Positions 11,334-28,085 of a stretch of DNA of 32,000 bases are shown here, in pieces. The position numbers and the translations under genes are program-made. The notes under the pieces were generated by a model that ran no database searches, was not told where the DNA came from, and saw only the letters and a program-made list of their open reading frames with translations. This DNA is from an archaeon (lineage in GTDB: Archaea; Iainarchaeota; Iainarchaeia; Iainarchaeales; CSSED10-239). The stretch's first letter is position 1; each line of letters begins with the position of its first letter. Location of the stretch: contig DAOOUC010000007.1 in assembly GCA_035390665.1 (NCBI GenBank), forward strand, positions 1 through 32,000. Reading direction: 5' to 3'.

Positions 11334-11336
11334 GTG

Positions 11337-12596: not shown

Positions 12597-12628
12597 TTTA
12601 ATCTCACCATTTTTTTATTTTTTAAATT

Positions 12629-15256: not shown

Positions 15257-15630
15257 TGTTAAAAAATAAATTTATTTATTGGATACCAAGAATTTTATCA
15301 ATATTATTTATTCTCTTTTTAGCAATGTTTTCTTTAGATGTTATTACTCCAGAGGCAAGTTTTTTGGAGATTGTGGGCGGATTACTAATTCATAATATCC
15401 CTGTTTTTATTTTAACTGCAATTTTAATAATTTCTTGGAAATATGAAATTGTAGGTGCTATTGCTTTTATTTTGGGAGGATTATTATATCTTCTAAATGT
15501 TTTGATTACTATAATTAGGACACCACCATTTGAATGGTTTTATTTATCTTGGATTTTATTTATTTCAGGACCAGCATTCTTGATAGGAATATTATTTTTA
15601 ATTGGCTGGTTAAAAAAAAAGTCTAAGTAA
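15256..15630 (+). CDS. Hypothetical 4-TM membrane protein (124 aa)
   Basis: It has four clear hydrophobic helices and its start is coupled to the upstream ORF. No motif was recognised. Confidence 0.55.
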
Positions 15631-17320
15631 ATTCATTTTCTGAAGTATTATTCCCGTAAAAGCTATTAAGTTTATTACTCATACAACTCATAATTGTTAA
15701 GCAATCTGTATCTGAAATATATTTTGTGTCTTGATAATTAATGTTGATAATATTATATTCATTTAATGGATCAATATCGTTTGGATAATCAGGAACAGGA
15801 GTAATTGGTTGTGGCATATTTTCAATTCTTCGTTGTAAATTTTCTTGTCTAATTCTTTCATTTTCTTGTCTTTGTATTTCAGCTTGATTTTGTCTTTCTA
15901 ATTCTTGTTTAGCAATAGGAAGTAAATCGTTTATTTCTTTACCTGATTTAGAAATTAATTCTCCAGAATATCCATAAATTATTGAACATTCTAATTTAGC
16001 ATCTTCATCTTTTATCCATATTCTAAAATATCCATTATTCCCCCAGTGTTCTCCCCAATTATTTTTTAATATCCAGTATTCTTTATTTCTAATCTTATCT
16101 GTGCCCCATCCAACAATAGTAACACCGTGAGCAAGGGTTGGAGGGTCTTCGTCTGATATTTTAGACCAAATTCCAGATTCAAAATTATAAAGAGACGGAT
16201 AAAAATAAATAGATGTTGCTAGAGGAGATAATTTAAGTGCTTCTTTAATATTATTGATTGTTTGAGTTTTATTTATAGTTCTACAATCAGAATTATCAAT
16301 TCTAAAATGAGATTCTATAAAATACTTGGTATAGTTGTCATTTTTTCTAGGCAAATAAATTGAATTTTCAGTATCTGAATCAGAAGTATCTGGACAAAAA
16401 TTAGAGTTTATATTATTAATATTTAATCGGCCTTGACCAGTAATTAAAAGAGGGGTAATATTCATATTTGTTGTAGTTTTCTTAGTAGTTCTATTTAAAT
16501 TAACAATTTCACAAGAATCATATGCCAAATAATTTAGTTGATTTTCTAAAGGAACACCAAAAGGAACTTCTCCAGCAGCTAAACTTAATTGGGTTCTTGT
16601 TTGTAAATGTTCTGTGCCTGCAATTAATTTATTTTCTAAACCTAATTCTCCTTTTATTTTATTTTTTAAATAATTATTAAAATCACTATTTTGATTATAA
16701 GAGGCTAAAGATAAGAATTTAATGTAATAATCTAATCCAGCACCACGACAGCCAATGAAATTAGAATAGGATATAAGATATTGTTCAGATAAGTTTAATT
16801 TATTATTTTCTGAAAGATTATCTTTTCTATTTATGTATCCTTCTAAAGCTCCAAGAATTGCAAAAGTGTTACAAGAACCACAAGTTGTTTGATTTTTACC
16901 TAGCGTCATATATGTTGCCCAATTTATTTGGTCTTCAAATTCATAAATTGGAGCAGAAATGGTGGCATCGGTTAATAAGAATAATCCAGTATTCCTATTT
17001 TTTTCTTTTTTCATAGAATTTAAGTCATCATATTTGTAGTTTTCTGGAAAGAAATTATTTTTATTTTCGGTATTAAAAATAGGCGATGGATCAGGATTTG
17101 CATTTGAATAAGAATCAATTTCATCAATTCTTTGAGTGATTGGAATTTTCATAATTTCTTTAGAGTAATTTGTAGCAACCCAAGATGCATTTTGTTTTCT
17201 TAATTGTTCATTAATAATATCTGCTTGTGTTTTTTCTTTAGATATTGATAAAAATAACATTATAGAGATAATTATTATAGAAATAATAATTGCAATTATG
17301 GAGTTTAATTTTTTATTCAT
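15623..17320 (-). CDS. Membrane-anchored papain-like cysteine protease (peptidase family C1A-like) with a large insertion and a coiled-coil C-terminal extension
   Basis: An N-terminal TM anchor is present ([19 protein letters not shown]). The catalytic motifs are [21 protein letters not shown] (Gln144..Cys150, same spacing as papain Q19/C25), [11 protein letters not shown] (His) and [21 protein letters not shown] (Asn-Trp). The C-terminal region is Q/E/R-rich ([30 protein letters not shown]). A GGGGA Shine-Dalgarno-like element precedes the ATG. Confidence 0.8.
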
Positions 17321-17436
17321 TTATTGTCCCCATATAATATAATAATATGAATGTTTATAAAATGTTTATCTCAAGAATATATTAGATGAAAACAGTATAA
17401 ATTGATTGTGTATCAAGCTTGAACGTAATAGGTCAG

Positions 17437-17518
17437 GCTAGGGTTTCCGAGCGGTCAAAGGAGCCAGACTCAAGATCTGGTGCTTAGTGCTTCGCAGGTT
17501 CGAATCCTGCCCTTAGCA
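17437..17518 (+). tRNA. tRNA-Leu (anticodon CAA), class II
   Basis: GCTAGGGTTTCCGAGCGGTCAAAGGAGCCAGACTCAAGATCTGGTGCTTAGTGCTTCGCAGGTTCGAATCCTGCCCTTAGCA is 82 nt. The anticodon loop is CTCAAGA and the discriminator is A. The layout matches archaeal tRNA-Leu (GCC-GAGCCTGGTCAAA-GGC type D-arm). No CCA is encoded. Confidence 0.9.
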
Positions 17519-17540
17519 GATTATAATCTATTTGAATATT

Positions 17541-18122
17541 ATGAAATTTGAAAATATTATTCTAAATAAACCAGAAGATGTCGTGTCTTTTCTAAAAAGA
17601 GAAGATTTGATTAATCAACTATATGAAATAGAATATACTACCAATCTGACTTATAGTTCGAAAGAAAAATTTATTGAAAGATTAAAAGAAAACCTATATC
17701 TTGAAACTCTTAATTCTAAAGAAATGGGCGTTTATTTTAATTTATTACATGAAAATAAAAAAATAATTGGTTTTTCTATATCAAATAAAGAAGATAAAGA
17801 AAGAGCATATATTGGAAGAATTGCAATTAGAAAAGAATATCAAGGTAAAGGTCTTGGAAAGAAATTATTGATTAATACTGTTGCAAAATTAAGAGTAAAG
17901 GGTTTTACTTATATTGATTTAACTGCAAAACCAGCATTACATAAGCCATTAAAACAAATAACTGGCCAATCAAATATTGGGAAATCAAGACGAAAATTTA
18001 ATTCTGATTTTAAGTATTCTATAAATAATAGAAAATTTAATCCAGAAAGTAATAAGCCGATTACAATTACAATAAAAAAACAAAAAAGGAAAATTCCTGT
18101 TTATAGGCCACGAATAAAATAG
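17541..18122 (+). CDS. GNAT-family N-acetyltransferase with a basic C-terminal tail
   Basis: The acetyl-CoA binding motif A is RIAIRKEYQGKGLGKKLL. The ATG at 17541 is preferred over the in-frame TTG at 17532. The Lys/Arg-rich tail reads KKQKRKIPVYRPRIK. Confidence 0.72.
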   Translation: MKFENIILNKPEDVVSFLKREDLINQLYEIEYTTNLTYSSKEKFIERLKENLYLETLNSKEMGVYFNLLHENKKIIGFSISNKEDKERAYIGRIAIRKEYQGKGLGKKLLINTVAKLRVKGFTYIDLTAKPALHKPLKQITGQSNIGKSRRKFNSDFKYSINNRKFNPESNKPITITIKKQKRKIPVYRPRIK

Positions 18123-18128
18123 ATAATT

Positions 18129-18509
18129 TTAACATTCTCCTTCTTTTAATATTGGTACATTGTCTGCTGTACATGCGTTTCCATAAGTAACTCCATTAAC
18201 TCCACAAACAGGCATATATTCCATTGTACAAACCTTTCCTTCTGTTGGAGGATATTGCCCTTTAAAACATTCTTCTCTATAAAGCTTCCATTCTTCACAT
18301 TGAGATCCATCTTCAAATGTACAGATTCCATATTCTCCATGTTCTGAATTGACAATATTTAATGTACCTCCAAGATTTTTACAATAAACAGAAGCAGGGT
18401 TTGCAATTTCAGTTGTATTCTTTTCTGAAAAAATTAAAAATCCTGCAACAATTCCTGATACAAAAACAATTGCCATAATTATTCCTATTATTATTCTTTT
18501 ATTTATCAT
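18129..18509 (-). CDS. Membrane-anchored DUF333 (COG3042, 'putative hemolysin') domain fused to a Kazal-type serine protease inhibitor domain
   Basis: An N-terminal TM helix is followed by NPASVYCKNLGGTLNIVNSEHGEYGICTFEDGSQCEEWKLYREEC, the canonical DUF333 pattern. Next comes CTMEYMPVCGVNGVTYGNACTADNVPILKEGEC (Kazal C..Y.PVCG..G.TY.N.C..C). An AGGTGA Shine-Dalgarno sits 8 nt upstream. The ATG overlaps the upstream stop (ATGA at 18506-18509). Confidence 0.75.
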   Translation of the reverse strand: MINKRIIIGIIMAIVFVSGIVAGFLIFSEKNTTEIANPASVYCKNLGGTLNIVNSEHGEYGICTFEDGSQCEEWKLYREECFKGQYPPTEGKVCTMEYMPVCGVNGVTYGNACTADNVPILKEGEC

Positions 18510-19375
18510 TTATTTTCACCTTTTTTAAATACTTCTCCAAGGAAAAGTTTATTACTTACTCCGTATTTTTTTATATCAATATATCCTTTATCTATTAGTT
18601 TTTTAATATTTCTTGAAACTGTGCCTTTAGGCAAGAAACTTTTAGCAGTTATTATTTTTTGAGATTGTCCTTCGTTTTCAATAATTATCTTCATAATCTT
18701 TTGTTCATTCTCATTTAGTCCCAAAAGTAAATCTTTTCCTTTTTCTGTAGTTTTTATTTCTTTTTTAGTTTTTGGTTTCTTTTTAATTAATAGGTATGCC
18801 CCAACTAAAATAATTGGAATAATTAATAAATAATAATAATAATTATTAGATTCAACATTCTTTAAATCATAATTAATATTTATTTCTTTGATATCTTTAA
18901 AAGAAATAACAATTTGTCCATTGATTACTTGAACCGAAGAAGAGATGGGCGTTTCTTTTATTTCTGAATTTTTGGGTAGAGTTATTTTTAAGTTATTAGA
19001 TGTGTCTAAATATCTAGATTTATAATTTAGATTCCAAAGTCCATTATTTTTATTTGTGTAATAATCAGTAAGAGAGATGATTTCTATATTTAATGTTTCT
19101 GGTATGTTGCTTAGGTTAATTGTTAATAATTCAGTTGTGTATGAAAAATTAGAATATTTTTGATTATTAATCTTTACAACAACATCATAGCTTGGAACAA
19201 TTGGTAATTCTAATTTTTCTGAATTAATGTCTGTAATTATTAATTTTTCTGAAATTTTATAACTATCAAATTTATCTGCAAATATTTCTGTGTCTTGAGA
19301 TATAACATTGTATGCATAATTATAATTAATTATTGTAATAAAAACAAAAAATATTAATATTTGTTTCTTAATCAT
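18506..19375 (-). CDS. Membrane-tethered winged-helix (MarR/ArsR-like) transcription regulator with an extracytoplasmic N-terminal domain
   Basis: A signal/anchor (ILIFFVFITIINY) is followed by an outside domain of about 150 aa and a TM helix (YYYYLLIIPIILVGAYLLI + KKKPKTKK). The cytoplasmic wHTH reads LNENEQKIMKIIIENEGQSQKIITAKSFLPKGTVSRNIKKLIDKGYIDIKKYG. Confidence 0.65.
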   Translation of the reverse strand: MIKKQILIFFVFITIINYNYAYNVISQDTEIFADKFDSYKISEKLIITDINSEKLELPIVPSYDVVVKINNQKYSNFSYTTELLTINLSNIPETLNIEIISLTDYYTNKNNGLWNLNYKSRYLDTSNNLKITLPKNSEIKETPISSSVQVINGQIVISFKDIKEININYDLKNVESNNYYYYLLIIPIILVGAYLLIKKKPKTKKEIKTTEKGKDLLLGLNENEQKIMKIIIENEGQSQKIITAKSFLPKGTVSRNIKKLIDKGYIDIKKYGVSNKLFLGEVFKKGENK

Positions 19376-19452
19376 AATTATTCACTAATATTATATTACA
19401 ATCATATATTTAAAGTTACTTTTTTTAAAAAAAATAAAAAAAGAAGAGAAAT

Positions 19453-20451
19453 TTATTCTTTAATTTCTCTTATAGCAGATATTCTTTTTTGTATTATCTT
19501 TTCTCCGAAAGGAATAAACCCTAAGAATTTCTTTTTTTCTTTAACTTCAAAAACATATTCTGGATTTTCTGATTCTGTTTCTAAAATAATTTCTCCGATT
19601 ATCTTTTCAGAATCAATTTTGTTTTCTTGAAGTATTTGTGTTACAGGTATTATCTTTTTTGTAGAGTTATTGTTTGTTATATAAATTTCAGAATCCTTTA
19701 TTTCCATTTGAGATCTTGTTCTTAATTGTTCTTTTGGTTTTTCTGCAGTTGTTAATTCTTCTTTGTTTGGTTTAGAATTTTGTGCATTAGGGTTTGCTTG
19801 TATTTGATTTTGATTTCTGGCTCTTGCATTTTCTGCAACAATTCCAGAATTGTCAGAATCAATAATTAAATAATGTATGTTTCCAAGATTATTCCCTTGA
19901 ATTTCGGTTCCATCATTTAGTTTGATTGTGGCTTTAAATTTAAGCAATTTATCTATTCCACAAGAATTAATAAATCCAGTCATATTTTCTTGTGCAAATT
20001 CTTCTGTATCGTTTTCTTTTACATAACCAATCTTTCCATGAAATAAAGAATCTGTTGAGCTTTTGCTTAATTTTCTTGTAAAACAAGCTTGTTCTTGTCC
20101 GTCTGTAAAAATTTCAAGAACTACCAATTCTATTTCTGAAAGATTAATAGTTTTAGTATTAGCAATAGGCAATAATTCTAAATCTAAATAATAGCCTTCA
20201 TTTTTCTTTAAATGATAGGTATTAGTTTCAGAATTAAAATAAGCACTAGAATTACATCTTTCTTTATATGGCCCAGTATAATTTTGATCAAAACGCACAG
20301 GTACAACAATTTGTGCTCTGTCTATTGCACAAGGAATTTGAAGTTCATAACTCATAGCTTCTTGAGCATAAAGTTTAGGAACAACAGCAAGTGCAAAGAT
20401 TGTTAATGCAAATATTGCAACCACATAATTTATTATTTTTTTTTCATTCAT
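19453..20451 (-). CDS. Secreted hypothetical protein; the C-terminal about 70 aa is PepSY-like (tentative)
   Basis: It has a signal peptide (VVAIFALTIFALAVVPKLYAQE) and a strong Shine-Dalgarno (TAAGGAGGAAAAATATG). The low-complexity linker is NARARNQNQIQANPNAQNSKPNKEE. The C-terminal EYVFEVKEKKKFLGFIPFGEKIIQKRISA resembles the YEV..K.KLFGFIPv...V pattern of PepSY-type domains, which is weak evidence. Confidence 0.55.
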   Translation of the reverse strand: MNEKKIINYVVAIFALTIFALAVVPKLYAQEAMSYELQIPCAIDRAQIVVPVRFDQNYTGPYKERCNSSAYFNSETNTYHLKKNEGYYLDLELLPIANTKTINLSEIELVVLEIFTDGQEQACFTRKLSKSSTDSLFHGKIGYVKENDTEEFAQENMTGFINSCGIDKLLKFKATIKLNDGTEIQGNNLGNIHYLIIDSDNSGIVAENARARNQNQIQANPNAQNSKPNKEELTTAEKPKEQLRTRSQMEIKDSEIYITNNNSTKKIIPVTQILQENKIDSEKIIGEIILETESENPEYVFEVKEKKKFLGFIPFGEKIIQKRISAIREIKE

Positions 20452-20462
20452 ATTTTTCCTCC

Positions 20463-20582
20463 TTAAATTTTTGTTTTTATTCTTAGTATTGTAAATAATA
20501 ATGTTATTACAATAGCAAGGTAAATAAAAATAGCCAAAAAATATTGTCTAATTTTTCTTGCTGGACAACTTAATTTTTTCAT
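20463..20582 (-). CDS. Candidate 39-aa single-TM micro-protein leading the minus-strand operon
   Basis: It is not in the ORF track because it is too short. It reads MKKLSCPARKIRQYFLAIFIYLAIVITLLFTILRIKTKI and is preceded by GAGGTGAAATAAAAATG (good Shine-Dalgarno and spacing). It ends 11 nt before the next gene's start. Confidence 0.35.
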   Translation of the reverse strand: MKKLSCPARKIRQYFLAIFIYLAIVITLLFTILRIKTKI

Positions 20583-20620
20583 TTTTATTTCACCTCGCTT
20601 TATTTTTTTTTCTTAAAGGG

Positions 20621-20645
20621 GATTTAATGGCATTGTCATTAAATC
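20621..20645. promoter_or_regulatory. Perfect 9-bp inverted repeat with 7-nt spacer (operator or leader hairpin candidate)
   Basis: The sequence is GATTTAATG-gcattgt-CATTAAATC. It lies in the divergent intergenic region, 39-63 nt upstream of the micro-ORF ATG. Confidence 0.35.
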
Positions 20646-20690
20646 GTTTGTTTATACAAAACTTATGATTTTTTCTATTTAAATACTTTT

Positions 20691-20721
20691 AGCGAAACTT
20701 AGTGAAACTTAGTGAAAACTA
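20691..20721. repeat. Three tandem about-10-bp direct repeats AG(C/T)GAAA(A)CTT in the divergent promoter region
   Basis: The copies are agcgaaactt / agtgaaactt / agtgaaaact(a). Their roughly helical-turn periodicity is typical of iterated regulator-binding sites. They lie about 95-125 nt upstream of the giant gene ATG. Confidence 0.45.
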
Positions 20722-20760
20722 CAGAAATATACTGGAATTTAGGGAAGATATTATGAAATG

Positions 20761-20768
20761 TTTATATA
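20761..20768 (+). promoter_or_regulatory. TATA-box-like element upstream of the giant gene (archaeal promoter candidate)
   Basis: TTTATATA lies about 50 nt upstream of the ATG at 20814. Several alternative AT-rich boxes are nearby, so the assignment is weak. Confidence 0.25.
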
Positions 20769-20813
20769 TTTTTATATCTTATATATTATATATCTCTAAG
20801 AAGTGAAAAGATT

Positions 20814-23800
20814 ATGAAATATACAAAAATACTATCTATAATTCTTATAATTTTAATATTGCCTTTTATCTTTGCAGAAGATGAAGGCAATTCTATTATT
20901 GTTCCTTTGGCAATAAATGGAACAGAAGGAGAATTAGATGTTTTTACAATACAAACAAACTATCCAGAAATAGAACTTGATGAATCTCAAGACCTAATTA
21001 CAAGTTTTTCTTCTTTTGATCAGAATTCATCATTTTCTTTAAATTCTCAAGTTAATTATAAATCTCTTAATATTCCTCATTATTTCTTAAAAGAAAATCA
21101 AAATACTAAAAAAAGAATATATCCATTTAACCAAGGAAGAACTTATGTAATAAATAATTCTTCGCAAGAAATTGCAAAAGACAAAACCTTAGAGCTTAAA
21201 TTAAATTTGTCTAATACCACACAAAAAGTTTATTTAATTATTGACCAAGCGCAATCAAATCCAATACCAGCTATGACTCAATTTGTAAATATTAGTTCTT
21301 CAACAATTGAGATTAACACCATTCCAAGATATCTAAAAATAAATAAAAGTTCAATTGTAAATGGCAAACTACTTTTAAATCTTAAAGCTAATATTCCTAA
21401 TTTTTCTTTACAAATAATAGAATTGGATAATAATCAAAAAGTTAGTGGAGTTTATAGTACAAATATTTTACAATTAGATTATGATTCTTTTAACAAATAT
21501 ACTTTATTTCAGATAAATAGAAACCTTATTGAATTTTATTGTCCTTATTGTCATCTTAAAGACTATGGGATAAATGAAAATGGTTTTTCTTCTTGTGGCA
21601 AGTCTGTTTTTGAACAAGAGAAGAAATCAATAACGGAATATTTAAGTGCGAAAGAAAATGTTTGTCTTTTACCAGATGGTTCAAGGATCTCTGGTTTTAC
21701 AAATGAGTCCTTGGAATTATTTGGTTTGAATAGATTATATTTTGAATGGAATGATAATATTCCTTCTGATTTCTTTGATTATGGAGAATACTATGTAGAT
21801 CAAGATCAACTAAGAATTGCAGTTTCTAAAAAATTAGATGAGATAAGTAATAATAATTATGTTGAAATTGAAACTACAAAATACAAAAAAGGAAAAAACA
21901 CCTTAATTTCAAAAGTTGGAACAGATATAGAATATGACTTGTCTGAAGTTACAGAACTTTCAACAAACAGTTCAATAAACGAGTCATTGGATTTTTCTAT
22001 TGCAGTATTAAATTCAATTCCCGAAGAATATAAAAAATTAACAATAATTGATTTAACAAATAATGAACCATCTGTAAGTGTTTCTGAATTTGATAGAATA
22101 ATGCAAGAGATTTTAGTTTCAAATTATTATAAAGTAACAGACTATCACACACATTATCAAATAACTCTTGAGAAATATTTAAGTTCAATTAGTAATTTTA
22201 AAATATCAAGAGCAAATAACGATATTTATTCTAAACTTTTATATGGCCTAGAATATAAAACACAAGGTTATTCTAATGTTTATTTATCAGAAGGATTAAA
22301 TTATTTTATATATAATATTAAACCATTTGGAGAAGATATAGAAGCAATTCTAAATAATGAGCACACACAATTGTTTGGAAACTATTGGAAACTAAATCTT
22401 TTAGATAATAACCAAACCACACAACCAAAAACAGTTATTGTAAATCTTTCAGAGATTGTTCCTGAAAGAAAAGAAGCAAATATTAGTTTTAATGATCCAA
22501 CTACAGATTTATATGTTAATTATTATTCAGGAAATCAATATTTTTCTAATAATCCTTTATTTTTAATGCCACTAAATGTATTAAGTTACAATCGTGGAAA
22601 CTTTTTTGAGAATACTACGTCTGTTACTTCAAAGCAACCAGATATCATAAACAATTATAATAATCTCCAAGAAGGCAAAATTGTTTCTATAGATACAACA
22701 AGTTCTGATTTTGTAATTAATTTAACAAAACCAATAATTATTACTAAAGATACTGGAGAAGAAATTTTAGTAAAGTATTATAATGGTAGAGAATATGTTA
22801 ATTATTCTAATAATTTAATAAAAGTAAATAATTCAAGAGAAGACTTTCCAACTAAAGAAACAATTGTTATTTATCCGCCAAAGTCAGAATTTGTAAATTT
22901 TCCATTAATTGTTGAATCATCAACTCCTTTAATTTTTAATAAAGAAGTTATTGAAAATAAAGAGCAAGAAAAATATGTATATAGATTAAATTCAGAAACT
23001 CAGAATTTAAGCTTTTCTGAATTAATAAACAATATTTCAAATAATCAAACTTGTTTTTCAGTTATAGATAATAGTTTTTCTTTATGGATAAATGTTGATC
23101 AAGAATTAGATGTTACAAAATCTTATAGTTATCAAGAATTTGCAAGTGCTTTACAATCAGAAGAAAATAGTCCTTCTGAAAGTCTTGCAACAACTTTAAA
23201 TCAAAACCCCGAAGTAAATACAACCTTTGCAGTATATACAATTGATGAATCTCAAAATCTTTACAAACAAGTACAAGCAGTTAATTCTTATATTCAAACA
23301 GAAACAGAGACAAGGAATTTAAAAATTTTAGAAAGTTATAATGAAGTATATCAAAAAGTATTAGAAAGTGAGCCTGCATTAAAAAAAGACTTTATAAATT
23401 TATTAAATTGTAATGAAACTTTAATTTGTAGGATTTCAAAAACAAGATTTACTCCAGAGGGTTCCTTCTTTGAGAGATTTAAAAATGTGTGCATAGACAA
23501 TACTCCTACAGAATGTGTAAGTTTCTGGTCAAATCCAAAAGTAAGTTATTGTTCTGCATTTATTAGAAATTTTAATAATTATTATTTTGGATATAGATTT
23601 GATTCTGCAAATGCTTGGGATTTAGCTAAACAACAAAATAATAAAAGTATTTGGAAGGCAACAACCGGCTCTCTTTCGGAAAGTAGTTATGATTATTTAA
23701 TTCCTGGTTCTGTTCTTGGAATTAAGCACAATAATACAAGTTATTGGGATAAAGAATATAGTCATGTTGTTGTTTATTTAGGGAAAATGGGTTCTAGTCA

Positions 23801-25787
23801 TTATATTATTCATTCTTGGTTAAATACCTTAAAAATTGAAAAACTAGATGTTTTCTTAAAAACAACAGCCAGAGGAAAAAATGCATATGGGTATTATGAA
23901 GATGGGCAAATAAAAGAAGTAATGATTTCAAATAACCTTTATCAGAAATTAAGAACAAAAGCTAGAATTGAAGGAATTTCTCTTGGTTCTGTTGATTCTT
24001 CTATTTATCAAGGCATTGTTTCTAATTACATATTAGATTCATTTAACAATTTTGAAATGGTTTCAACAACTCAGAGAAGCACACTAAATCAAAATATGTA
24101 TCAGGAATTAGAGGTTGTTTATAATAGAATTTTAAATAAGGACTTTAGTATTTATTATAAAACAAACTATTCTAATAATTCAACACCAGAAGTAAATCAA
24201 AACATAAGATTAACACCAGGAGAGCCAATGATAATAATTCTTGGCAAATATAAAAAAGTATTTTTAGTTAATAAAGAGAATGGAATAACTAATATTATTT
24301 CTGAATATCCAATAGCAACAGGAGTTAATGGTTTTGGTTGTGTGAACGATAGTTTAAAAACACCAATTGGGCTATTTAAAATTGTACAAAAAGTTGGACA
24401 AAATTGTAGTCCTTTACAAGTTATAGGTGCTAATGGTTGTCAATATCAAAACGGAAACCCCGTACTTGCAAGTTATAATTCAGGAACAGCTAAAGTTGTA
24501 ACCAGAAAACTTGTTCTTGATGGTCTTGAAAAAGAAAATATTGGTGTTGGTTGTGACACAGGTAATAGAAACACAATATATAGAGGGATATTTATACACG
24601 GAACAAATTATGAAAACTCAATGGGACAACAAAGATCTCATGGTTGTATTAGAATGTTAAATAATGATGTTATTACTTTGTTTAACAATGTGCAAAACGG
24701 AACGTATGTTTATATTTATAATTCTGAAACAAGTTATTCAAGTCTTTTAGATTTAGAAAACAAATTAACAAATTCAGGAAACAACTTAGAATTCACATTA
24801 ACTAGTGCAAGAAAACCATCAAATTCTAGAATTACAGCAACGAAGACAATGCAAGATGTTGACAATTATATTGATGAAAGAATAAATACATTTAGAATGT
24901 TAGATAATACAACAGGAGTAAGTCTAAGTTATGGTAGAGAATGTAACACAACAACCTTGAAGTTTCCTTGTTTTTTAAAAGAAGCCTTAGATGTAGAATA
25001 TGATGCACATGTAATAAATCCACAATCTTCTGAGTTTAATTATATTGTTTTTAGAGTAACTAAAGCTTTTGGTTATACTTTAGAAGAAACAGCACAATTT
25101 TGGGGAAGTCTTTCTCAAGAGAGTGGAACTTCAACAAACATAAGTGGATCACAATCACAATATGGTAATTCTCTTACAGGAAAACCAGCATATGGTATTG
25201 CACAAATAGAAAAAGCACCATGGTCACAATATAATGCAAATAGATACACATTTGACGAAATGGTTCAAGATTTTAATTCTGTAGATTTATCTAGTATTAT
25301 TGAAAGAGACCCTAGAATTGGAACCGTTACAGGCAGTAATAATAAAATAGACAGTAGAACAGAAATAATTGCTTTATTAGATTTAATTTGGACAAATAAA
25401 AGTAAATATGCATCTGTTGTTTTTTCTGCAGGATTAAAAAGATATATTGGTAGAAAGATAATTACAACTTCTCAAATTAATTACAATTCTGGAACAATAA
25501 GAGAGCCGTTTTGGCATGCTCATAGAACGACATACGATCATTTAAATTCAATTAATTTTAATTTTGCTGTAATTTATAAATATAAATATACAGGAACTCA
25601 AAGAATGTATGATGGTATAAAAAGATATTCTGGATTAGATGGCGGAGAAGACACAATTAAAACAATTGCATTAAAGCTTGCAAATTATCTTGCTTTTAAA
25701 AAAGAATATTATATGTATAAATATGGAATAATAAATGGAAATCATTCTGATTTATTGGCAAGTATGATAAATGCAGGGATAATTTAA
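20814..25787 (+). CDS. Giant (1657 aa) secreted/surface protein with NlpC/P60-like cysteine peptidase, YkuD L,D-transpeptidase and SLT-like lytic transglycosylase modules
   Basis: It has an N-terminal signal/anchor (ILSIILIILILPFIFA) and about 880 aa of N/S/T-rich sequence of unknown fold. YCSAFIRNF...SHVVVYLGKMGSSHYIIHSW (Cys913/His984) looks like NlpC/P60. IFIHGTNYENSMGQQRSHGCIRMLNNDV (Cys1278) is the YkuD motif. SQESG..AYGIAQI..INYNSGT (Glu1436) follows the E-S / G-L-M-Q / Y-N-x-G order of SLT domains. Confidence 0.85.
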   Translation: MKYTKILSIILIILILPFIFAEDEGNSIIVPLAINGTEGELDVFTIQTNYPEIELDESQDLITSFSSFDQNSSFSLNSQVNYKSLNIPHYFLKENQNTKKRIYPFNQGRTYVINNSSQEIAKDKTLELKLNLSNTTQKVYLIIDQAQSNPIPAMTQFVNISSSTIEINTIPRYLKINKSSIVNGKLLLNLKANIPNFSLQIIELDNNQKVSGVYSTNILQLDYDSFNKYTLFQINRNLIEFYCPYCHLKDYGINENGFSSCGKSVFEQEKKSITEYLSAKENVCLLPDGSRISGFTNESLELFGLNRLYFEWNDNIPSDFFDYGEYYVDQDQLRIAVSKKLDEISNNNYVEIETTKYKKGKNTLISKVGTDIEYDLSEVTELSTNSSINESLDFSIAVLNSIPEEYKKLTIIDLTNNEPSVSVSEFDRIMQEILVSNYYKVTDYHTHYQITLEKYLSSISNFKISRANNDIYSKLLYGLEYKTQGYSNVYLSEGLNYFIYNIKPFGEDIEAILNNEHTQLFGNYWKLNLLDNNQTTQPKTVIVNLSEIVPERKEANISFNDPTTDLYVNYYSGNQYFSNNPLFLMPLNVLSYNRGNFFENTTSVTSKQPDIINNYNNLQEGKIVSIDTTSSDFVINLTKPIIITKDTGEEILVKYYNGREYVNYSNNLIKVNNSREDFPTKETIVIYPPKSEFVNFPLIVESSTPLIFNKEVIENKEQEKYVYRLNSETQNLSFSELINNISNNQTCFSVIDNSFSLWINVDQELDVTKSYSYQEFASALQSEENSPSESLATTLNQNPEVNTTFAVYTIDESQNLYKQVQAVNSYIQTETETRNLKILESYNEVYQKVLESEPALKKDFINLLNCNETLICRISKTRFTPEGSFFERFKNVCIDNTPTECVSFWSNPKVSYCSAFIRNFNNYYFGYRFDSANAWDLAKQQNNKSIWKATTGSLSESSYDYLIPGSVLGIKHNNTSYWDKEYSHVVVYLGKMGSSHYIIHSWLNTLKIEKLDVFLKTTARGKNAYGYYEDGQIKEVMISNNLYQKLRTKARIEGISLGSVDSSIYQGIVSNYILDSFNNFEMVSTTQRSTLNQNMYQELEVVYNRILNKDFSIYYKTNYSNNSTPEVNQNIRLTPGEPMIIILGKYKKVFLVNKENGITNIISEYPIATGVNGFGCVNDSLKTPIGLFKIVQKVGQNCSPLQVIGANGCQYQNGNPVLASYNSGTAKVVTRKLVLDGLEKENIGVGCDTGNRNTIYRGIFIHGTNYENSMGQQRSHGCIRMLNNDVITLFNNVQNGTYVYIYNSETSYSSLLDLENKLTNSGNNLEFTLTSARKPSNSRITATKTMQDVDNYIDERINTFRMLDNTTGVSLSYGRECNTTTLKFPCFLKEALDVEYDAHVINPQSSEFNYIVFRVTKAFGYTLEETAQFWGSLSQESGTSTNISGSQSQYGNSLTGKPAYGIAQIEKAPWSQYNANRYTFDEMVQDFNSVDLSSIIERDPRIGTVTGSNNKIDSRTEIIALLDLIWTNKSKYASVVFSAGLKRYIGRKIITTSQINYNSGTIREPFWHAHRTTYDHLNSINFNFAVIYKYKYTGTQRMYDGIKRYSGLDGGEDTIKTIALKLANYLAFKKEYYMYKYGIINGNHSDLLASMINAGII

Positions 25788-25788
25788 T

Positions 25789-26448
25789 TTATTCTAATAA
25801 TTTATCTTTTATTTTCTTTATTTTTGTTTTAGATTTAATTATGTAATGTCTTTTCGCATGTTCCACTAAAAGAGCATGATATTCTTGGTATATCTTGAAA
25901 TCTTTTGGAAGGTTATCCATAAATAGTTTTTGTATTTCTTCGTATTTTGCATTTTTTTTAATAATTTTAAGATTTAATAATATTCTTATAGTATATGCAT
26001 CAACAACAAAGATTGGTTCTCTATGTGCATATAAAAGAATGGAATCAGCTGTTTCTTTTCCAATTCCTTTAACTGAAAGAAGTTCGTGTCTTGTAGGCAT
26101 TCTGTCTTTCAAAGATAAATAAAATTTAGAAATATCAACAAGTCTTTCATATTTTTGATTATAATAGCCAACAGATTTAATTGCGTGTTTGATAATTTCT
26201 TCATCTTTTTCTATTATTGCTTTAGGATTCAGTAAATCGTTTTTCTTAAGATTATAAATTGCTTTTTCAACATTTTTCCAAGAAGTACTCTGAGTTAATA
26301 TTGCCCCAACATATACTTCAAATATTTGAGAATGTGTTTTAATTAAATAATATTTCCCTGGATGATAACCAATATCAGATAATGGCCACCAACCCTGTGG
26401 TCCATAGTTTGTAAGTAAAACATCATATATTTTTTGTATAGTATTCAT
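25789..26448 (-). CDS. Endonuclease III-related HhH-GPD DNA glycosylase (COG2231-like, no Fe-S cluster motif)
   Basis: The HhH-GPD motif is LLSVKGIGKETADSILLYAHREPIFVVDAYTIRIL, and there is no C-terminal Cys cluster. I start it at MNTIQKIYD (ATG at 26448) rather than at the 11-codon upstream extension. Its stop lies 1 nt from the giant gene's stop (convergent). Confidence 0.8.
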   Translation of the reverse strand: MNTIQKIYDVLLTNYGPQGWWPLSDIGYHPGKYYLIKTHSQIFEVYVGAILTQSTSWKNVEKAIYNLKKNDLLNPKAIIEKDEEIIKHAIKSVGYYNQKYERLVDISKFYLSLKDRMPTRHELLSVKGIGKETADSILLYAHREPIFVVDAYTIRILLNLKIIKKNAKYEEIQKLFMDNLPKDFKIYQEYHALLVEHAKRHYIIKSKTKIKKIKDKLLE

Positions 26449-26510
26449 AGCTTTTTCACAAATAATAATATAACAATACAATTATTAAATGTTTTTGTGT
26501 TATTGTTTTT

Positions 26511-27059
26511 ATGCTTAGAAGAATTTTAATATTTTTGTGTTTAGTTTTATTTTTAGGAACTTTATTTTATGTTCTTATCGAAAATAATAACAAAACAGAA
26601 ACAGACAAAACCTATTATTTCGGTTACGGAAGTAATATGGATATTGATCTTTTAAGAAAAAGGATTGATAATAATTCTATAGTTCCAGTAAGTTATGCTA
26701 AACTTGAAAACTATCGTCTAATCTTTCCAAGAGGAGTAGGTTCTGTTATTCCTGATGAAACTACAGATGTCTATGGTTGTCTTTTTCTTTTAACAAAAGA
26801 AGAAATAGCAAAACTGGATATTATTGAAGGATATAGAGAAGATAGAAATAAATCATTAAACAGTTACAATAGAGAATGGATAGATGTTTTGTCTCCAAAA
26901 GGTAAAAAAGTATCTGCAGAAATCTATATTCAGACAAACAATTCTGATGTAAATGCAAAACCAAGTAATAGTTACAAGCAAACACTTGTAAAAGGTGCAA
27001 GCGATTGTTCTCTTCCTGATTTTTATCAAGAACAATTAAAGCAAATTGAAGTTAGATAA
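26511..27059 (+). CDS. Gamma-glutamylcyclotransferase-like (AIG2/GGCT fold) protein with N-terminal TM/signal segment
   Basis: YYFGYGSNM matches the Y-G-S-N-(M/L) signature, and a later catalytic-type Glu lies in IIEGYRE. The N-terminal hydrophobic segment is ILIFLCLVLFLGTLFYVLI. Confidence 0.65.
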   Translation: MLRRILIFLCLVLFLGTLFYVLIENNNKTETDKTYYFGYGSNMDIDLLRKRIDNNSIVPVSYAKLENYRLIFPRGVGSVIPDETTDVYGCLFLLTKEEIAKLDIIEGYREDRNKSLNSYNREWIDVLSPKGKKVSAEIYIQTNNSDVNAKPSNSYKQTLVKGASDCSLPDFYQEQLKQIEVR

Positions 27060-27198: not shown

Positions 27199-28008
27199 AT
27201 GAATAAAGTAAATGTATTAGGAAATGATATTTCATATTATACAAAACAGGAAAACGACTATATTTCTTTAACAGACATGGTTAAAAATTTAAATAATGGT
27301 TTAGTATTAATAGAAAAATGGTTAAGAAATAAAAACACTATTGAATTTATAGGGATTTGGGAAGAAATGAACAACCCTGAATTTAATTCCCCCGAATTCG
27401 GGGGAATTAAAAATGAAGCAGGAACAAATAGATTTGCATTGTCTGTAAGTCAATGGATAATTAGAACAAATGCTATTGGAATTAAAGCAAGTGCAGGAAG
27501 GTATGGCGGAACCTTCGCACACAAAGATATTGCTTTTGAGTTTGCTTCATGGATATCTCCTAAATTTAAATTATATCTTATTAAAGAATTTCAAAGATTA
27601 AAAATAGATGAAAGTCAAAGGTTAAAACTTGATTGGGACATTAAAAGAAATCTTGCTAAAATTAATTATCATATACACACAGACGCTATAAAGAACAATT
27701 TGATTCCTGAAAAGATATCTAAAACAAAAGAATATTTAATTTATGCAACAGAAGCAGATATCTTAAATCTTGCTCTTTTCGGATTAACTGCAAAAGAATG
27801 GAAAAATAATAATCCTAAATTAGAAGGGAATATTAGAGATTATGCAGATATTTCTCAATTAGTTTGTCTTTCAAATCTTGAAAACTTAAATGCGTTGTTC
27901 ATTAAAGAAGGAATGGACAAATTAGAGAGATTGAAAAAATTAAACATTATAGCAATTGAGCAAATGACTATTTTAACTAATCAGCAAGTAATTAAAAAAT
28001 TAAAATAA
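27199..28008 (+). CDS. KilA-N domain DNA-binding protein (phage/mobile-element-associated family)
   Basis: The ISLTDM..WLRNKNTIEFIGIWEEMNNPEFN..EF..IKNEAGTNRFALSVSQWI..TNAIGI..GRYGGTFAHKDIAFEFASWISPKFKLYLIKEFQRLK pattern is characteristic of the widespread about-270-aa KilA-N proteins. Confidence 0.75.
   Translation: MNKVNVLGNDISYYTKQENDYISLTDMVKNLNNGLVLIEKWLRNKNTIEFIGIWEEMNNPEFNSPEFGGIKNEAGTNRFALSVSQWIIRTNAIGIKASAGRYGGTFAHKDIAFEFASWISPKFKLYLIKEFQRLKIDESQRLKLDWDIKRNLAKINYHIHTDAIKNNLIPEKISKTKEYLIYATEADILNLALFGLTAKEWKNNNPKLEGNIRDYADISQLVCLSNLENLNALFIKEGMDKLERLKKLNIIAIEQMTILTNQQVIKKLK
27382..27411. repeat. Perfect 30-bp palindrome with G5/C5 core centred on GAATTC, inside the KilA-N CDS
   Basis: TTTAATTCCCCCGAATTCGGGGGAATTAAA equals its own reverse complement, checked base by base from 27382 to 27411. 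It encodes ..FNSPEFGGIK.. Confidence 0.9.
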
Positions 28009-28012
28009 GAAG

Positions 28013-28085
28013 TGGTCCTGCCCGGATTTGGACCGGGGATCTCTGCCATGTGAAGGCAACATCATAACCGCTAGACCACAGGACC
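28013..28085 (-). tRNA. tRNA-Val (anticodon CAC)
   Basis: The reverse complement GGTCCTGTGGTCTAGCGGTTATGATGTTGCCTTCACATGGCAGAGATCCCCGGTCCAAATCCGGGCAGGACCA folds as a 73-nt cloverleaf. The anticodon loop is TTCACAT and the discriminator is A. No CCA is encoded. The T-loop reads TCCAAAT, so position 55 is C rather than the usual U. Confidence 0.88.

Follow-up and report, generated by a model that had tools for sequence, protein, structure and literature searches.

A giant secreted protein with putative cell wall-cutting modules, and the divergent regulator cassette beside it, in a DPANN archaeon

Large extracellular murein-hydrolase proteins have been described in DPANN archaea and were read as a means of attack on, or attachment to, bacteria (PMC8204110, PMC9723730, PMC10936187). 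These archaea are also reported to carry bacterial-type genes, for which horizontal transfer is the suggested source (PMC9723730, PMC10936187), and archaeal transmembrane transcription regulators have already been catalogued (PMC10269533). We analysed a 32,000-nucleotide stretch of DNA (the window) in which a preliminary description had singled out a giant gene and, divergent from it, a minus-strand operon of four genes, proposed to form a single self-regulated module. All five ORFs were confirmed with their coordinates and sizes, as were the gaps of 11 and 77 nt, the 4-nt overlap, and the 231-bp region (20583-20813) between the micro-ORF and the giant gene. A hydrophobic segment, N-terminal or internal, is present in all five products, in agreement with the claim that all of them are secreted or membrane-bound.

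Architecture of the giant protein

The giant gene and the modules assigned to its product are as follows.

20814..25787, plus strand: giant secreted or anchored protein, 1657 aa (ORF list, homologs, hydrophobic N-terminus)
23451..23933, plus strand: putative NlpC/P60-like (papain-fold) cysteine peptidase module, residues ~880-1040 (motif, AF2 model)
24294..24716, plus strand: YkuD L,D-peptidase domain, residues 1161-1301 (Pfam PF03734)
25026..25784, plus strand: type-A tail, divergent lysozyme-like, residues ~1405-1657 (profile searches)

The protein was aligned with 16 full-length homologs (43-95% identity), and the alignment contained invariant columns. A hydrophobic signal or anchor (residues 1-25) is followed by about 850 residues of no recognised fold, with conserved cysteines (CPYC...C...C, at about residues 243-284), which probably serve as a stalk or binding region. 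The C-terminal half most likely comprises three different enzymes that cut the bacterial cell wall. That the protein is secreted and murein-directed, as had been proposed, was supported by the YkuD domain and the lysozyme-C matches of the tail.

The YkuD L,D-peptidase domain is firmly identified at the level of sequence (Pfam PF03734, 5.9e-17; 63 bits, the cutoff being 23.4), in line with the peptidoglycan-enzyme motifs noted in the preliminary description. Its catalytic motif, IHGT...SHGCIRM (His1262, Cys1278), is intact in 16 of 17 homologs. The best NCBIfam match was the L,D-carboxypeptidase ElsL (3e-24, under the cutoff of that model), and the top Foldseek matches were Bd1075, Pgp2, Csd6, and B. 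subtilis YkuD. In its predicted activity the domain thus resembles L,D-carboxypeptidases more closely than cross-linking transpeptidases.

Upstream of it, residues ~880-1040 form a putative NlpC/P60-like cysteine peptidase, proposed at the level of motifs. The proposed triad consists of Cys913 (YCSAF), His984 (SHVVVYLG), and His996/His1000 (HYIIHSW), and these Cys and His positions are kept in 14 to 17 of the 17 giant sequences. In the AF2 model of this region (block-mean pLDDT mostly 63-93), Cys913 is found at the N-terminal end of a helix and the His residues on successive strands, a papain-like secondary-structure context. The module failed every formal family test, the only matches being weak ones to C92 (Pfam, E=0.046; Foldseek, E=0.79).

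The type-A tail carries the motif EETAQFW..SQE(1436)SGTS...YGIAQIE..W. An exhaustive profile search yielded 23 distant relatives, with weak C-type-lysozyme or phage-lysozyme Pfam matches at the matched region and, in one relative, a true NlpC/P60 domain. When the broadened profile was compared with the PDB, all of the top 60 matches were to lysozyme C (E 0.004-0.016), and the invariant Glu-Ser of the tail aligned with the catalytic Glu35-Ser36 of hen lysozyme (HEWL). The tail has low confidence in the AF2 model (pLDDT ~30). At a borderline profile level, it is predicted to be a lysozyme-like glycan-cleaving domain with one catalytic Glu. Several relatives of the giant carry instead an unrelated, GH73-like tail (type B; the tail of P0007 matched PF01832 at 1e-5). 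The two types do not follow the tree of the shared region; P0004, which has type A, and P0008, which has type B, are 86% identical. Judged from these comparisons, the tail is an exchangeable cassette, replaced through recombination by a GH73-like glucosaminidase in close relatives.

The divergent region and the minus-strand genes

The minus-strand genes, and the candidate regulatory elements in the 231-bp region and in the 77-nt gap, are listed here.

18129..18509, minus strand: DUF333 plus Kazal-type protein, membrane-anchored, 126 aa (Pfam)
18506..19375, minus strand: single-pass transmembrane wHTH regulator, 289 aa (Pfam HTH_24, MarR, TrmB)
19405..19442, minus strand: oligo-T/pyrimidine tract (19427-19442), then TATA-like box CTTTAAATATA (19405-19415)
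19453..20451, minus strand: secreted or anchored protein X, 332 aa (25 homologs, AF2 model)
20463..20582, minus strand: single-pass membrane micro-protein, 39 aa (MKKLSCPARKIRQ, then a TM helix)
20621..20645, minus strand: inverted repeat GATTTAATGGCA/TGTCATTAAATC (12-nt arms, 11/12 complementary)
20676..20689, minus strand: BRE/TATA-like element of the micro-ORF/X unit, AAAGTATTTAAATA (positional conservation)
20689..20718, minus strand: direct repeats, GTTTCRC-N3-GTTTCRC plus a degenerate third copy, 10-bp period
20761..20768, plus strand: TATA-like box of the giant gene, TTTATATA, 45 nt 5' of its ATG

The domain calls made earlier for the regulator and for the last gene of the series held up in Pfam (HTH_24, 1.1e-10; DUF333, 5.5e-22; Kazal_1, 2e-07). 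The regulator consists of a signal peptide, an ectodomain of about 155 aa, a TM helix (residues 179-198), a basic linker, and a C-terminal wHTH domain of the MarR/TrmB type. It has 71 homologs, some of them in MAGs of Ca. Diapherotrites and Ca. Iainarchaeum. Little variation is seen in the wHTH domain, and none in the recognition helix, PKGTVSRNIKKL, across nine aligned regulators. The DUF333-Kazal gene, whose overlap with the regulator gene is 4 nt, is accessory and variable rather than a constant part of the locus. In four loci (L005-L007 and L016) its place is taken by an unrelated Lys-rich TM protein, DUF333 occurs without Kazal in L003, and in L017 a DUF333 protein with two Kazal domains lies elsewhere in the locus, adjoining a C1 peptidase. 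Whether it is present bears no relation to the tail type of the giant.

The micro-protein is conserved at the protein level in six loci (L003, L006, L007, L009, L013, and L016) and has divergent 37-aa versions in L019 and L020, whereas L008, L017, and L018 lack it. In protein X, a signal or anchor helix is followed by a beta-sandwich domain with four Cys, then by a low-complexity linker and by a conserved C-terminal domain of about 70 aa (motif ..YVFEVKEKRKLFGFIPxG..), the latter being the part common to the X-like genes of L017, L018, and L021. None of the 25 homologs of X has a Pfam domain, and its AF2 model (pLDDT 70) gave only generic beta-sandwich matches in Foldseek. The C-terminus had been called PepSY-like; this was not confirmed, as neither a Pfam PepSY match at E<=10 nor a PepSY entry among the top 50 Foldseek hits was obtained.

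Good Shine-Dalgarno-like sites do precede three of the four minus-strand genes (GAGGTGA for the micro-ORF, GGAGG for the 332-aa gene, and GGTGA for the DUF333 gene), that of the wHTH gene being weak (AGTGA). The gaps described for a tightly linked operon are correct, but a single transcription unit is doubtful, because the 77-nt gap contains an oligo-T tract and, about 29 nt 5' of the wHTH ATG, the TATA-like box CTTTAAATATA, both of which are kept in 9 of the 9 loci compared. The gap contains a probable archaeal terminator followed by a probable separate wHTH promoter, which would give a short-leader transcript.

The inverted repeat, three tandem 10-mers, and palindromic box noted in the 231-bp region are all present. 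We consider these three cis-elements real, beyond what chance statistics alone indicate, because their positions are conserved in 12 related loci, where the layout of the micro-ORF/X promoter is the same as in the window. The direct repeats, read on the plus strand as three tandem TTAG[C/T]GAAAC units, lie immediately 5' of the BRE/TATA of the micro-ORF/X unit. Nowhere else in the window does the repeat pair occur (2 matches observed against 0.09 expected, a number reached in 0 of 100 shuffles). It is present once per locus and is kept in the window and the 12 related loci, five of which have no giant in the flanks examined; it is the candidate binding site of the wHTH regulator. The palindromic TATTTAAATA (20676-20685) lies inside the BRE/TATA-like element, whose position is kept in all related loci examined; a TATA-like box alone is not significant in DNA of 27% GC (39/100 shuffles). 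In the window the inverted repeat, alone marginal (4.6% of shuffles), lies about 30 nt 3' of the TATA box (the distance is about 20-30 nt over all loci), where transcription of the micro-ORF/X unit is predicted to start or close by. An inverted repeat of lineage-specific sequence occupies this place in every locus examined, and may be an operator of another factor or a 5' RNA hairpin. The box TTTATATA, preceded by AAATG/AAAG and matched by an equivalent box at the same position in giant-bearing loci, probably serves as the giant gene's own promoter. It lies 42 bp beyond the direct repeats, which are situated between the two promoters.

We then asked whether the five genes form one module. All giant-bearing relatives, to identities as low as about 50%, keep the gene order, with the giant divergent from the X/regulator cassette in every such locus examined, so that co-regulation through the shared 231-bp region is possible. 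The synteny is no proof of a functional link, since housekeeping neighbours (ABC transporter, EndoIII-like, GGACT, AspRS, and ThrRS) are equally collinear. The X and regulator pair, together with all the intergenic cis-elements, was also found in five more distant loci (L017-L021), in which no giant gene was present in the 6-10 kb of flanking DNA examined. The proposed self-regulated module of five genes was supported only in part. The model in which the regulator controls the giant, with the Kazal/DUF333 and 'PepSY-like' proteins as accessory or protective factors of an episymbiont that breaches or attaches to a bacterial wall, draws on the constant divergent arrangement, on the nearness of the repeats to the giant's TATA box, and on the extracytoplasmic or membrane location of all products. 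Against it stand the five cassettes without a giant in the flanks examined, the replacement of the DUF333-Kazal gene irrespective of tail type, the failure to detect PepSY in X, and the lineage-wide collinearity, and we regard this model as unlikely. The five genes probably do not form one module; the X/regulator cassette is older and more widespread, and probably not dedicated to the giant.

Role of the enzyme and origin of the contig

Our preferred explanation, to which we assign a probability of about 0.55, combines a secreted murein-directed multi-enzyme with an older cassette of two transcription units not dedicated to it. The giant would be secreted or surface-anchored, its three C-terminal modules being aimed at bacterial peptidoglycan. 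The substrate would most likely be a foreign bacterial wall (of a living partner, prey, or debris), since nothing found here indicates that the archaeon makes murein; its cutting could breach that wall locally or allow attachment, and/or liberate peptides and amino sugars. Unit (i) would comprise the micro-ORF and X, with a promoter made of two or three GTTTCRC repeats, the BRE/TATA, and the lineage-specific inverted repeat, and unit (ii) the single-pass transmembrane wHTH regulator, transcribed from a promoter of its own, together with the variable small gene after it (here DUF333-Kazal). The regulator would most likely bind the invariant direct repeats and control unit (i), and in the giant-bearing clade it may possibly influence the giant gene as well.

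A largely free-living fermenter could instead use the giant as a nutrient-scavenging exoenzyme on bacterial necromass, with no partner or attachment role, the cassette sensing extracellular peptide or amino acids. The variable slot next to the regulator would fit such a role, as it is occupied, depending on the relative, by an Orr-like amino-acid racemase, fragments of LdcA (a muramoyl-tetrapeptide carboxypeptidase), a branched-chain amino-acid binding protein, or a secreted C1 peptidase. In the window, the locus has a secreted C1 peptidase and a GGACT-family protein with a membrane anchor as its flanking genes. It has been suggested that DPANN obtain amino acids from the peptidoglycan of dead cells (PMC11537232), and Iainarchaeota have been proposed to be free-living, according to work cited in PMC10936187, which also weakens the episymbiosis reading. 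The N-terminal anchor and the ~850-aa region, however, suggest a cell-associated rather than freely diffusing protein, and the peptidoglycan and amino-acid genes beside the regulator are anecdotal and confounded by the lineage-wide collinearity. We give scavenging by a free-living cell little credence.

Action on the archaeon's own envelope, in which for instance a true L,D-transpeptidase would cross-link or remodel a murein-like or other peptide-containing wall or anchor surface proteins, is improbable. YkuD enzymes are known to cross-link peptidoglycan or to attach proteins to it, PGAP annotates the family as 'L,D-transpeptidase', an amino-acid racemase or LdcA-like gene fragments adjoin the same regulator in relatives, and the bacterial-type genes of DPANN cited above would accommodate such a function. 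Yet neither the window nor any of the 21 loci retrieved showed a murein-synthesis gene, the YkuD domain has its nearest relatives among hydrolytic L,D-carboxypeptidases, and the domain is flanked by a putative peptidase and a lysozyme-like glycosidase. The recombinational swapping of the glycosidase cassette is, in our judgement, more in keeping with enzymes directed at foreign substrates of varied kinds than with housekeeping remodelling.

The source of the window is a DPANN archaeon (Iainarchaeota/Diapherotrites type) from anaerobic-digester-type metagenomes, and the archaeal origin assumed earlier was supported. Its own proteins are deposited at NCBI as 'MAG TPA ... [archaeon]', its relatives bear the names Candidatus Diapherotrites or Ca. 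Iainarchaeum, and its AspRS is of the non-discriminating type (NF003483, 524 bits), which we take to be typically archaeal. The conserved boxes upstream of genes match the archaeal BRE/TATA consensus. The giant gene is present in six 'archaeon'-labelled MAGs bearing three different isolate-naming schemes, which we take to represent separate projects. A bacterial contig (e.g., mis-binned CPR/Patescibacteria), with the enzymes performing ordinary wall remodelling, might be suspected from a ThrRS whose match to the general model TIGR00418 is far better than that to NF003068 (in our reading the archaeal-type model), from the presence of a DisA diadenylate cyclase, and from the low GC and small secreted proteins reminiscent of CPR genomes, but it is scarcely credible given the archaeon, Diapherotrites, or Iainarchaeum label of every strongly matching MAG, the AspRS type, the wHTH matches to TrmB and DUF7343, the conserved TATA-like boxes ~25-45 nt 5' of start codons, the archaeal-type pilin and T2SSE/F genes on relatives' contigs, and a sole bacterial match to the giant that is confined to the YkuD domain (31% identity).

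Comparison with described systems

The preliminary description knew of no described system of this composition, which was an overstatement, as both giant murein hydrolases of DPANN (PMC8204110, PMC9723730, PMC10936187) and transmembrane regulators (PMC10269533) have been published. Giant murein hydrolases are already known in DPANN as a sign of interaction with bacteria, and the protein analysed here is like the published giant extracellular ones in that both are taken as wall-cutting proteins.

Gene order and archaeal origin

The five open reading frames were found at exactly the positions and with exactly the sizes claimed in the preliminary description, as follows:

18129-18509, minus strand: DUF333-Kazal gene, 126 aa
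18506-19375, minus strand: wHTH regulator gene, 289 aa
19453-20451, minus strand: X gene (secreted protein), 332 aa
20463-20582, minus strand: micro-ORF (TM protein), 39 aa
20814-25787, plus strand: giant gene, 1657 aa

The spacing was also as described: on the minus strand, two gaps (11 nt and 77 nt) and then an overlap of 4 nt, and between the divergent genes, 231 bp. So were the SD-like sites, the only weak one being that of the wHTH gene. A hydrophobic signal, anchor, or TM segment was found in all five products, as expected from the claim that every one of them is secreted or membrane-bound.

We then compared the gene order in the related giant-bearing loci with enough context (L003/L004, L005/L006, L007, L008, and L016). 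The order of small gene, wHTH gene, X, divergent giant gene, and convergent EndoIII-like gene was kept in all of them, so the gene set is syntenic in relatives. Since the housekeeping neighbors (the ABC transporter, GGACT, AspRS, and ThrRS genes) were equally collinear, this synteny reflects one moderately diverged lineage and by itself does not prove a functional link.

Several neighbors deserve mention in their own right. The GGACT/AIG2-like gamma-glutamyl-cyclotransferase-family gene (26511-27059, plus strand), whose product has an N-terminal hydrophobic anchor, is kept just past the giant and EndoIII-like genes in L003, L007, and L016; speculatively, gamma-glutamyl bonds, e.g., those of peptidoglycan stem peptides, could be the substrate of such an enzyme outside the cytoplasm. 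The KilA-N gene (27199-28008, plus strand), located between the GGACT gene and tRNA-Val (28012-28085), is probably a small strain-specific mobile insertion, because it is absent from the equivalent position in the same three loci; no integrase was seen. A mobile island spanning tRNA-Leu to tRNA-Val was rejected, there being no integrase, a uniform composition, and core genes collinear in relatives devoid of KilA-N. Just past the EndoIII-like gene, where the window has the GGACT gene, two loci carry further giant ORFs that run off their contigs (L008:10683-19861, at least 3542 aa, and L005:14220-18890, at least 1557 aa), and in this lineage the region seems to encode a number of very large surface proteins. 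Two MacB/FtsX-type permease genes around a 419-aa gene (10116-13825, minus strand), together with an adjoining ABC ATPase gene, form a block kept in relatives that may function in the export or efflux of secreted factors; the 419-aa gene has no Pfam match, and its relatives show a faint one to DUF8164.

The window proteins are deposited at NCBI as HOW29651-HOW29679, labelled 'MAG TPA ... [archaeon]', and the contig is also present in two JGI metagenomes. When one genome per GTDB species was scanned, the giant gene turned up in six MAGs, every one titled 'archaeon', whose three isolate-naming schemes we took as signs of separate projects; the sole bacterial match to the giant in that scan covered only its YkuD domain (31% identity). 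Relatives of the regulator and the giant bear the names Candidatus Diapherotrites archaeon and Candidatus Iainarchaeum sp. The AspRS encoded in the window is of the non-discriminating type, which we take to be typically archaeal, and conserved boxes found upstream of genes fit the archaeal BRE/TATA consensus. The MAG labels, the AspRS type, and these boxes all speak against a bacterial contig. ThrRS and DisA in the window look bacterial in type, and bacterial-type genes have been reported in DPANN archaea (PMC10936187). The DisA-type diadenylate cyclase is full-length (1187-2335, plus strand; NCBIfam equivalog, 334 bits, above the cutoff), and its presence in an archaeal MAG implies c-di-AMP signalling of the bacterial DisA type.

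Probable enzymatic modules of the giant protein

The giant has 16 full-length homologs with 43 to 95% identity, and the NCBI annotation of the family reads 'L,D-transpeptidase' only. A relaxed Pfam scan of the N-terminal 860 residues gave only a chance-level zinc-ribbon match (E = 0.029). An invariant CPYC...C...C cluster at residues 243 to 284 (window 20814-21713) may be a metal site or a disulfide knot.

The YkuD domain (PF03734) spans residues 1161 to 1301 (E = 5.9e-17; 63 bits versus a Pfam gathering cutoff of 23.4), and its catalytic motif, IHGT...SHGCIRM, following the pattern HG...(S/T)xGC(I/V)R, is intact in 16 of the 17 proteins, the Cys missing only in the homolog P0015. When the AlphaFold model, which is of moderate confidence in the YkuD region, was searched with Foldseek, 56 PDB matches had an E value of 0.001 or less, and the best 50 of the 56 all had the YkuD fold. 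The closest structures were the L,D-carboxypeptidases Bd1075, Pgp2, and Csd6, followed by Bacillus subtilis YkuD. The best NCBIfam match was likewise to an L,D-carboxypeptidase, ElsL (NF040925; 3e-24), at 85.6 bits versus the curated cutoff of 270, which places the giant outside the ElsL family proper. The full-length profile recovered YkuD alone from the PDB sequences, as did Foldseek searches of PDB and viral structures with the multi-domain model, in which a papain-like domain fell below significance.

Upstream of YkuD, the alignment of the full-length homologs revealed a conserved Cys913...His984...His996/1000 set in the context YCSAF / PGSVLGI...SHVVVYLG / HYIIHSW, which fits the canonical NlpC/P60 pattern. 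In the model, Cys913 lies at a helix N terminus and the His residues on consecutive strands. Pfam gave no match to PF00877 (NlpC/P60) in the giant, and the related family C92 scored below its cutoff in Pfam (E = 0.046) and had an E value of 0.79 in Foldseek. These motif-level features suggest a putative NlpC/P60-like papain-fold peptidase, for which the formal profile and fold scores are low.

Downstream of YkuD, the giants end in one of two unrelated tails: type A, of about 350 aa, in the window protein and nine homologs, or type B, of about 250 aa, in six homologs, one of which (P0007) matches Glucosaminidase (PF01832) at 1e-5. When tail A was used as the profile in an exhaustive search, 23 relatives emerged, several with weak Pfam C-type-lysozyme or phage-lysozyme matches at the matched segment and one with a true NlpC/P60 domain. 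Tail A did not reach the Pfam gathering threshold of the lysozyme families, the matches being Phage_lysozyme2 at 0.081 (window) and Lys at 0.002 to 0.009 (relatives). Against PDB sequences, a narrow tail profile found only JAK2 kinase (E of about 0.03), at chance level. A lysozyme signal arose only after the profile had been broadened with distant relatives; lysozyme C then made up all 60 top matches, with borderline significance (E = 0.004 to 0.016). In this alignment, an invariant Glu-Ser stands opposite the catalytic Glu35-Ser36 of hen lysozyme, and G[IMV]AQI..W (GIAQI..W in the window) opposite YGILQIN..W. The position of Asp52 is read as Ala (KPAYGIAQI) in the window protein and as Asp in some distant relatives. 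A second catalytic Asp, Asp52 in the hen enzyme, marks GH22 versus the single-carboxylate GH23 and lytic transglycosylases; because of the Ala, the alignment suggests that a single-Glu, GH23-like mechanism would fit tail A better than a GH22 one. The AF2 model of the tail is helical, as expected, with a pLDDT too low for a fold search, about 30 and rising to about 57 to 81 only at model residues ~641 to 720.

The type of tail did not follow the relationships of the rest of the protein. In a tree built from the 1,270 residues shared by the giants, P0004, which has tail A, was nested within a tail-B clade and was 86% identical to P0008, which has tail B. This incongruence indicates that the glycosidase cassette was exchanged by recombination. 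The same divergent lysozyme-like domain was also seen in other large proteins from related archaea (P0186 and P0214-P0220, from Ca. Iainarchaeum MAGs, and P0178), one of which, 1198 aa long, pairs it with leucine-rich repeats, while another, of 1189 aa, pairs it with a bona fide NlpC/P60 domain; a member of the latter's cluster is named 'cell wall-associated NlpC family hydrolase.' These proteins point to a wider repertoire of wall-targeting surface proteins.

We give slightly better than even odds (about 0.55) to the giant being a cell-associated or secreted multi-enzyme acting on bacterial peptidoglycan. Its lysozyme-like or GH73-like tail would cleave the glycan and YkuD together with the putative NlpC/P60-like module would trim or cleave the stem peptides, and the purpose might be local breaching or attachment, or the release of nutrients.

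The regulator cassette and its probable promoters

The 289-aa protein carries an HTH_24/MarR/TrmB wHTH at residues 218 to 279 (Pfam), a TM segment at 179 to 198, and an N-terminal signal-like segment. A single polypeptide thus unites a DNA-binding domain with one or more TM segments, the defining trait of transmembrane transcription regulators (TTRs), and its regulatory function is predicted from this architecture, which is retained throughout a family of 71 members with identities down to 34%.

Five related loci without the giant gene (L017, L018, L019, L020, and L021), with 38 to 57% identity in the regulator, were included in the comparison. An X-type gene lies directly upstream of the regulator gene in each of them, and the 6- to 10-kb flanks fetched contain no giant YkuD gene. 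Homology to X extends over the full length of the protein in L019 (1e-151) and L020 (1e-153) and is limited to a conserved C-terminal domain of about 70 aa in L017, L018, and L021. The regulator cassette predates the giant gene. The proposed five-gene module thus stands as a gene order in the giant-bearing loci and fails as a fixed unit, as the regulator and X also occur in giant-less flanks and the fourth gene is replaceable.

Neither X nor the micro-ORF product had a Pfam match. A PepSY-like C terminus had been ascribed to X; no PepSY family appeared among its Pfam matches at an E value of 10 or less or among its top 50 Foldseek matches in PDB. The fold search with the X model returned only generic beta-sandwiches, such as the p53 DNA-binding domain and oligosaccharyltransferase/translocon chains, and was uninformative, with TM-scores of 0.10 to 0.54 depending on normalisation. 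The micro-ORF protein is conserved in seven loci; L019 and L020 have divergent versions of it, and L008, L017, and L018 have none.

The 126-aa protein matched DUF333 (PF03891; 5.5e-22, 78.2 bits versus a cutoff of 25) and Kazal_1 (PF00050; 2e-07, 31.3 bits versus a cutoff of 21), with the Kazal Cys pattern present. In the window, L003, and L008, the fourth gene encodes DUF333, either joined to Kazal or alone; in L005-L007 and L016, it encodes an unrelated Lys-rich membrane protein. Since its type did not correlate with that of the giant tail, an immunity-like partnership of the DUF333-Kazal protein with the tail was ruled out.

Other genes were noted near the regulator. In L019 (10961-12043) and L020 (11942-13033), the slot beside it holds an Orr-like PLP amino-acid racemase (about 275 bits, below the cutoff), and in L021 (11846-12892), it holds three LdcA/S66 (muramoyl-tetrapeptide L,D-carboxypeptidase) fragments, apparently of a broken gene; in all three of these giant-less relatives, the slot genes have to do with D-amino acids or with the stem peptide of peptidoglycan. 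The window encodes, two genes away from the locus, a secreted papain-family C1 peptidase (15623-17320, minus strand; 565 aa, Pfam 3e-29) with a C-terminal region rich in Gln, Glu, and Arg; such peptidases also lie near the regulator in relatives (L017:11279-13420 and L016:12031-13707). In L017, the immediate neighbors of the peptidase gene are the regulator gene on one side and, on the other, the gene of a DUF333 protein that has two Kazal domains, an arrangement that hints at a possible protease/inhibitor pairing.

The elements described between the divergent genes were all found, along with a TATA-like box of the giant gene, at the following positions:

20621-20645: inverted repeat
20676-20685: TATTTAAATA box
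20689-20718: three tandem TTAG[C/T]GAAAC units
20761-20768: TATA-like box of the giant gene, 42 bp beyond the repeats

We then asked how often such elements arise by chance. The tandem repeat gave two matches versus 0.09 expected, a number reached in none of 100 shuffles, while the inverted repeat arose in 4.6% of shuffles and the TATA-like TATTTAAATA box in 39 of 100, the DNA having 27% GC. Chance tests thus single out the tandem repeat only, and the reality of the other elements rests on their conservation. One promoter layout is common to the window and 12 related loci, including the five giant-less ones: in the direction of the cassette, it comprises, in order, a degenerate repeat, TAA-GTTTCRC-TAA-GTTTCRC, TAAAAG-TATTTAAATA, some 20 to 30 nt, an inverted repeat, and the SD. 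As giant-less loci have the same layout, these elements belong to the micro-ORF/X promoter.

In the nine regulators aligned, the wHTH was nearly invariant and its putative recognition helix, PKGTVSRNIKKL, fully so. The invariant GTTTCRC direct repeats are the candidate target of the regulator and are favored over the inverted repeat because they and the helix do not vary, while the sequence of the inverted repeat differs between lineages. The inverted repeat is disfavored as the regulator's operator on the same grounds, and an Rfam scan of 17300-26600 detected tRNA-Leu only and no RNA family for it.

Ahead of the wHTH gene, which lacks a good SD, the 77-nt gap contains a conserved oligo-T/pyrimidine tract and then, some 29 nt from the ATG, ACTTTAAATAT; this arrangement recurs in each of the nine loci compared. 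It resembles an archaeal terminator with a second promoter behind it, and the minus-strand genes, claimed to be one operon, therefore probably form two transcription units, divided at this gap.

The cassette is most likely a transmembrane regulator system whose primary target is its own partner unit, with control of the giant gene also possible. That the regulator, X, and the micro-protein form a surface-sensing circuit for bacterial contact or wall fragments, in which the GTTTCRC repeats switch on the partner genes and the giant, we regard as improbable. If true, it would be an archaeal sensory circuit dedicated to predation on bacteria or attachment to them, and the swappable glycosidase cassette would mirror an arms race with bacterial wall modifications.

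Significance and likeness to known systems

The observations of the preliminary description largely held, and its interpretation, a self-regulated module with which an episymbiont breaches or attaches to a bacterial wall, held in part. The claim that no such system had been described is overstated, given the published giant murein-hydrolase proteins in DPANN (PMC8204110, PMC9723730, PMC10936187). Castelle et al. (2021) described large extracellular murein-hydrolase proteins in DPANN and suggested some of these archaea to be episymbionts of bacteria (PMC8204110), Vigneron et al. (2022) proposed peptidoglycan-degrading 'vampiristic' DPANN (PMC9723730), and the idea of peptidoglycan degradation has been repeated since (PMC10936187, PMC11537232), while Demey et al. 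(2023) catalogued archaeal TTRs, about four per genome (PMC10269533). With this work on giant wall-degrading proteins and TTRs, the concept is known; new are the phylum, the presence of probably three enzyme modules together, the swapping of the tail cassette, and the footprinted promoter of the regulator cassette.

DPANN account for a large share of archaeal diversity, and how they gain resources from other cells is mostly obscure. The giant extends the murein-hydrolase idea to Iainarchaeota, a phylum often called free-living, with a richer toolkit: one protein that probably has specificities for three bonds, and whose glycosidase cassette has been swapped through recombination. Its predicted catalytic residues C913, C1278, and E1436 are defined and open to mutation and direct assay. 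The cassette offers an unusually clean, phylogenetically footprinted test case of promoter recognition by a membrane-bound transcription factor of archaea: neither the recognition helix nor the direct repeat varies, a BRE/TATA box is present, and the inverted repeat is specific to the lineage.

The closest counterparts of the giant are the fam00969 giants (PMC8204110; also PMC9723730 and PMC10936187). Both are very large secreted DPANN proteins with a glycan-cleaving domain of the lysozyme superfamily, normally absent from archaea, and each family has been read as a means of binding to the bacterial cell wall or breaking it down. Unlike fam00969, the giant comes from Iainarchaeota/Diapherotrites-type MAGs, has an additional YkuD L,D-peptidase and a putative NlpC/P60-like peptidase, and its lysozyme-like tail is closest to C-type motifs and exchangeable for a GH73-like one. 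The likeness to the 'murein-like lytic transglycosylase' of fam00969 is one of architecture and function only.

The YkuD module shares the fold and the His...(S/T)xGC(I/V)R motif with bacterial L,D-carboxypeptidases (ElsL, Bdellovibrio Bd1075, Campylobacter Pgp2, and Helicobacter Csd6) and with the L,D-transpeptidases B. subtilis YkuD and LdtMt2. Unlike in these enzymes, it lies within a 1657-aa archaeal protein and has no NTF2, LysM, or PG-binding partner domain. DUF333 lipoproteins and Kazal inhibitors are likewise known types, here fused in an archaeal membrane-anchored protein of 126 aa.

Peptidoglycan hydrolases and polymorphic effectors with exchangeable C-terminal cassettes occur among phage endolysins and polymorphic toxin systems, the latter surveyed in archaea as well. 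The giant resembles them in combining several wall-cleaving modules in one polypeptide and in joining a conserved N-terminal body to a recombinationally swapped C-terminal enzymatic domain. A trafficking domain, a link to a secretion system, and a cognate immunity gene, hallmarks of polymorphic toxins, were not recognised at the locus, the gene downstream of the giant being the convergent EndoIII-like gene in all loci and not a co-varying immunity gene.

The regulator resembles the TTRs ToxR-ToxS and TcpP-TcpH of Vibrio, CadC, and the archaeal TTRs (PMC10269533) in being a single-pass protein with an ectodomain and a DNA-binding domain. Further points of likeness are the small membrane or secreted partner proteins (the micro-ORF product and X) encoded beside it and the candidate site of direct repeats with a 10-bp period. 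It differs from these TTRs in its reversed topology, with the signal peptide and ectodomain at the N terminus and the DNA-binding domain at the C terminus, in its wHTH, which is of the MarR/TrmB and not the OmpR type, and in its promoter, which is of the archaeal BRE/TATA type.
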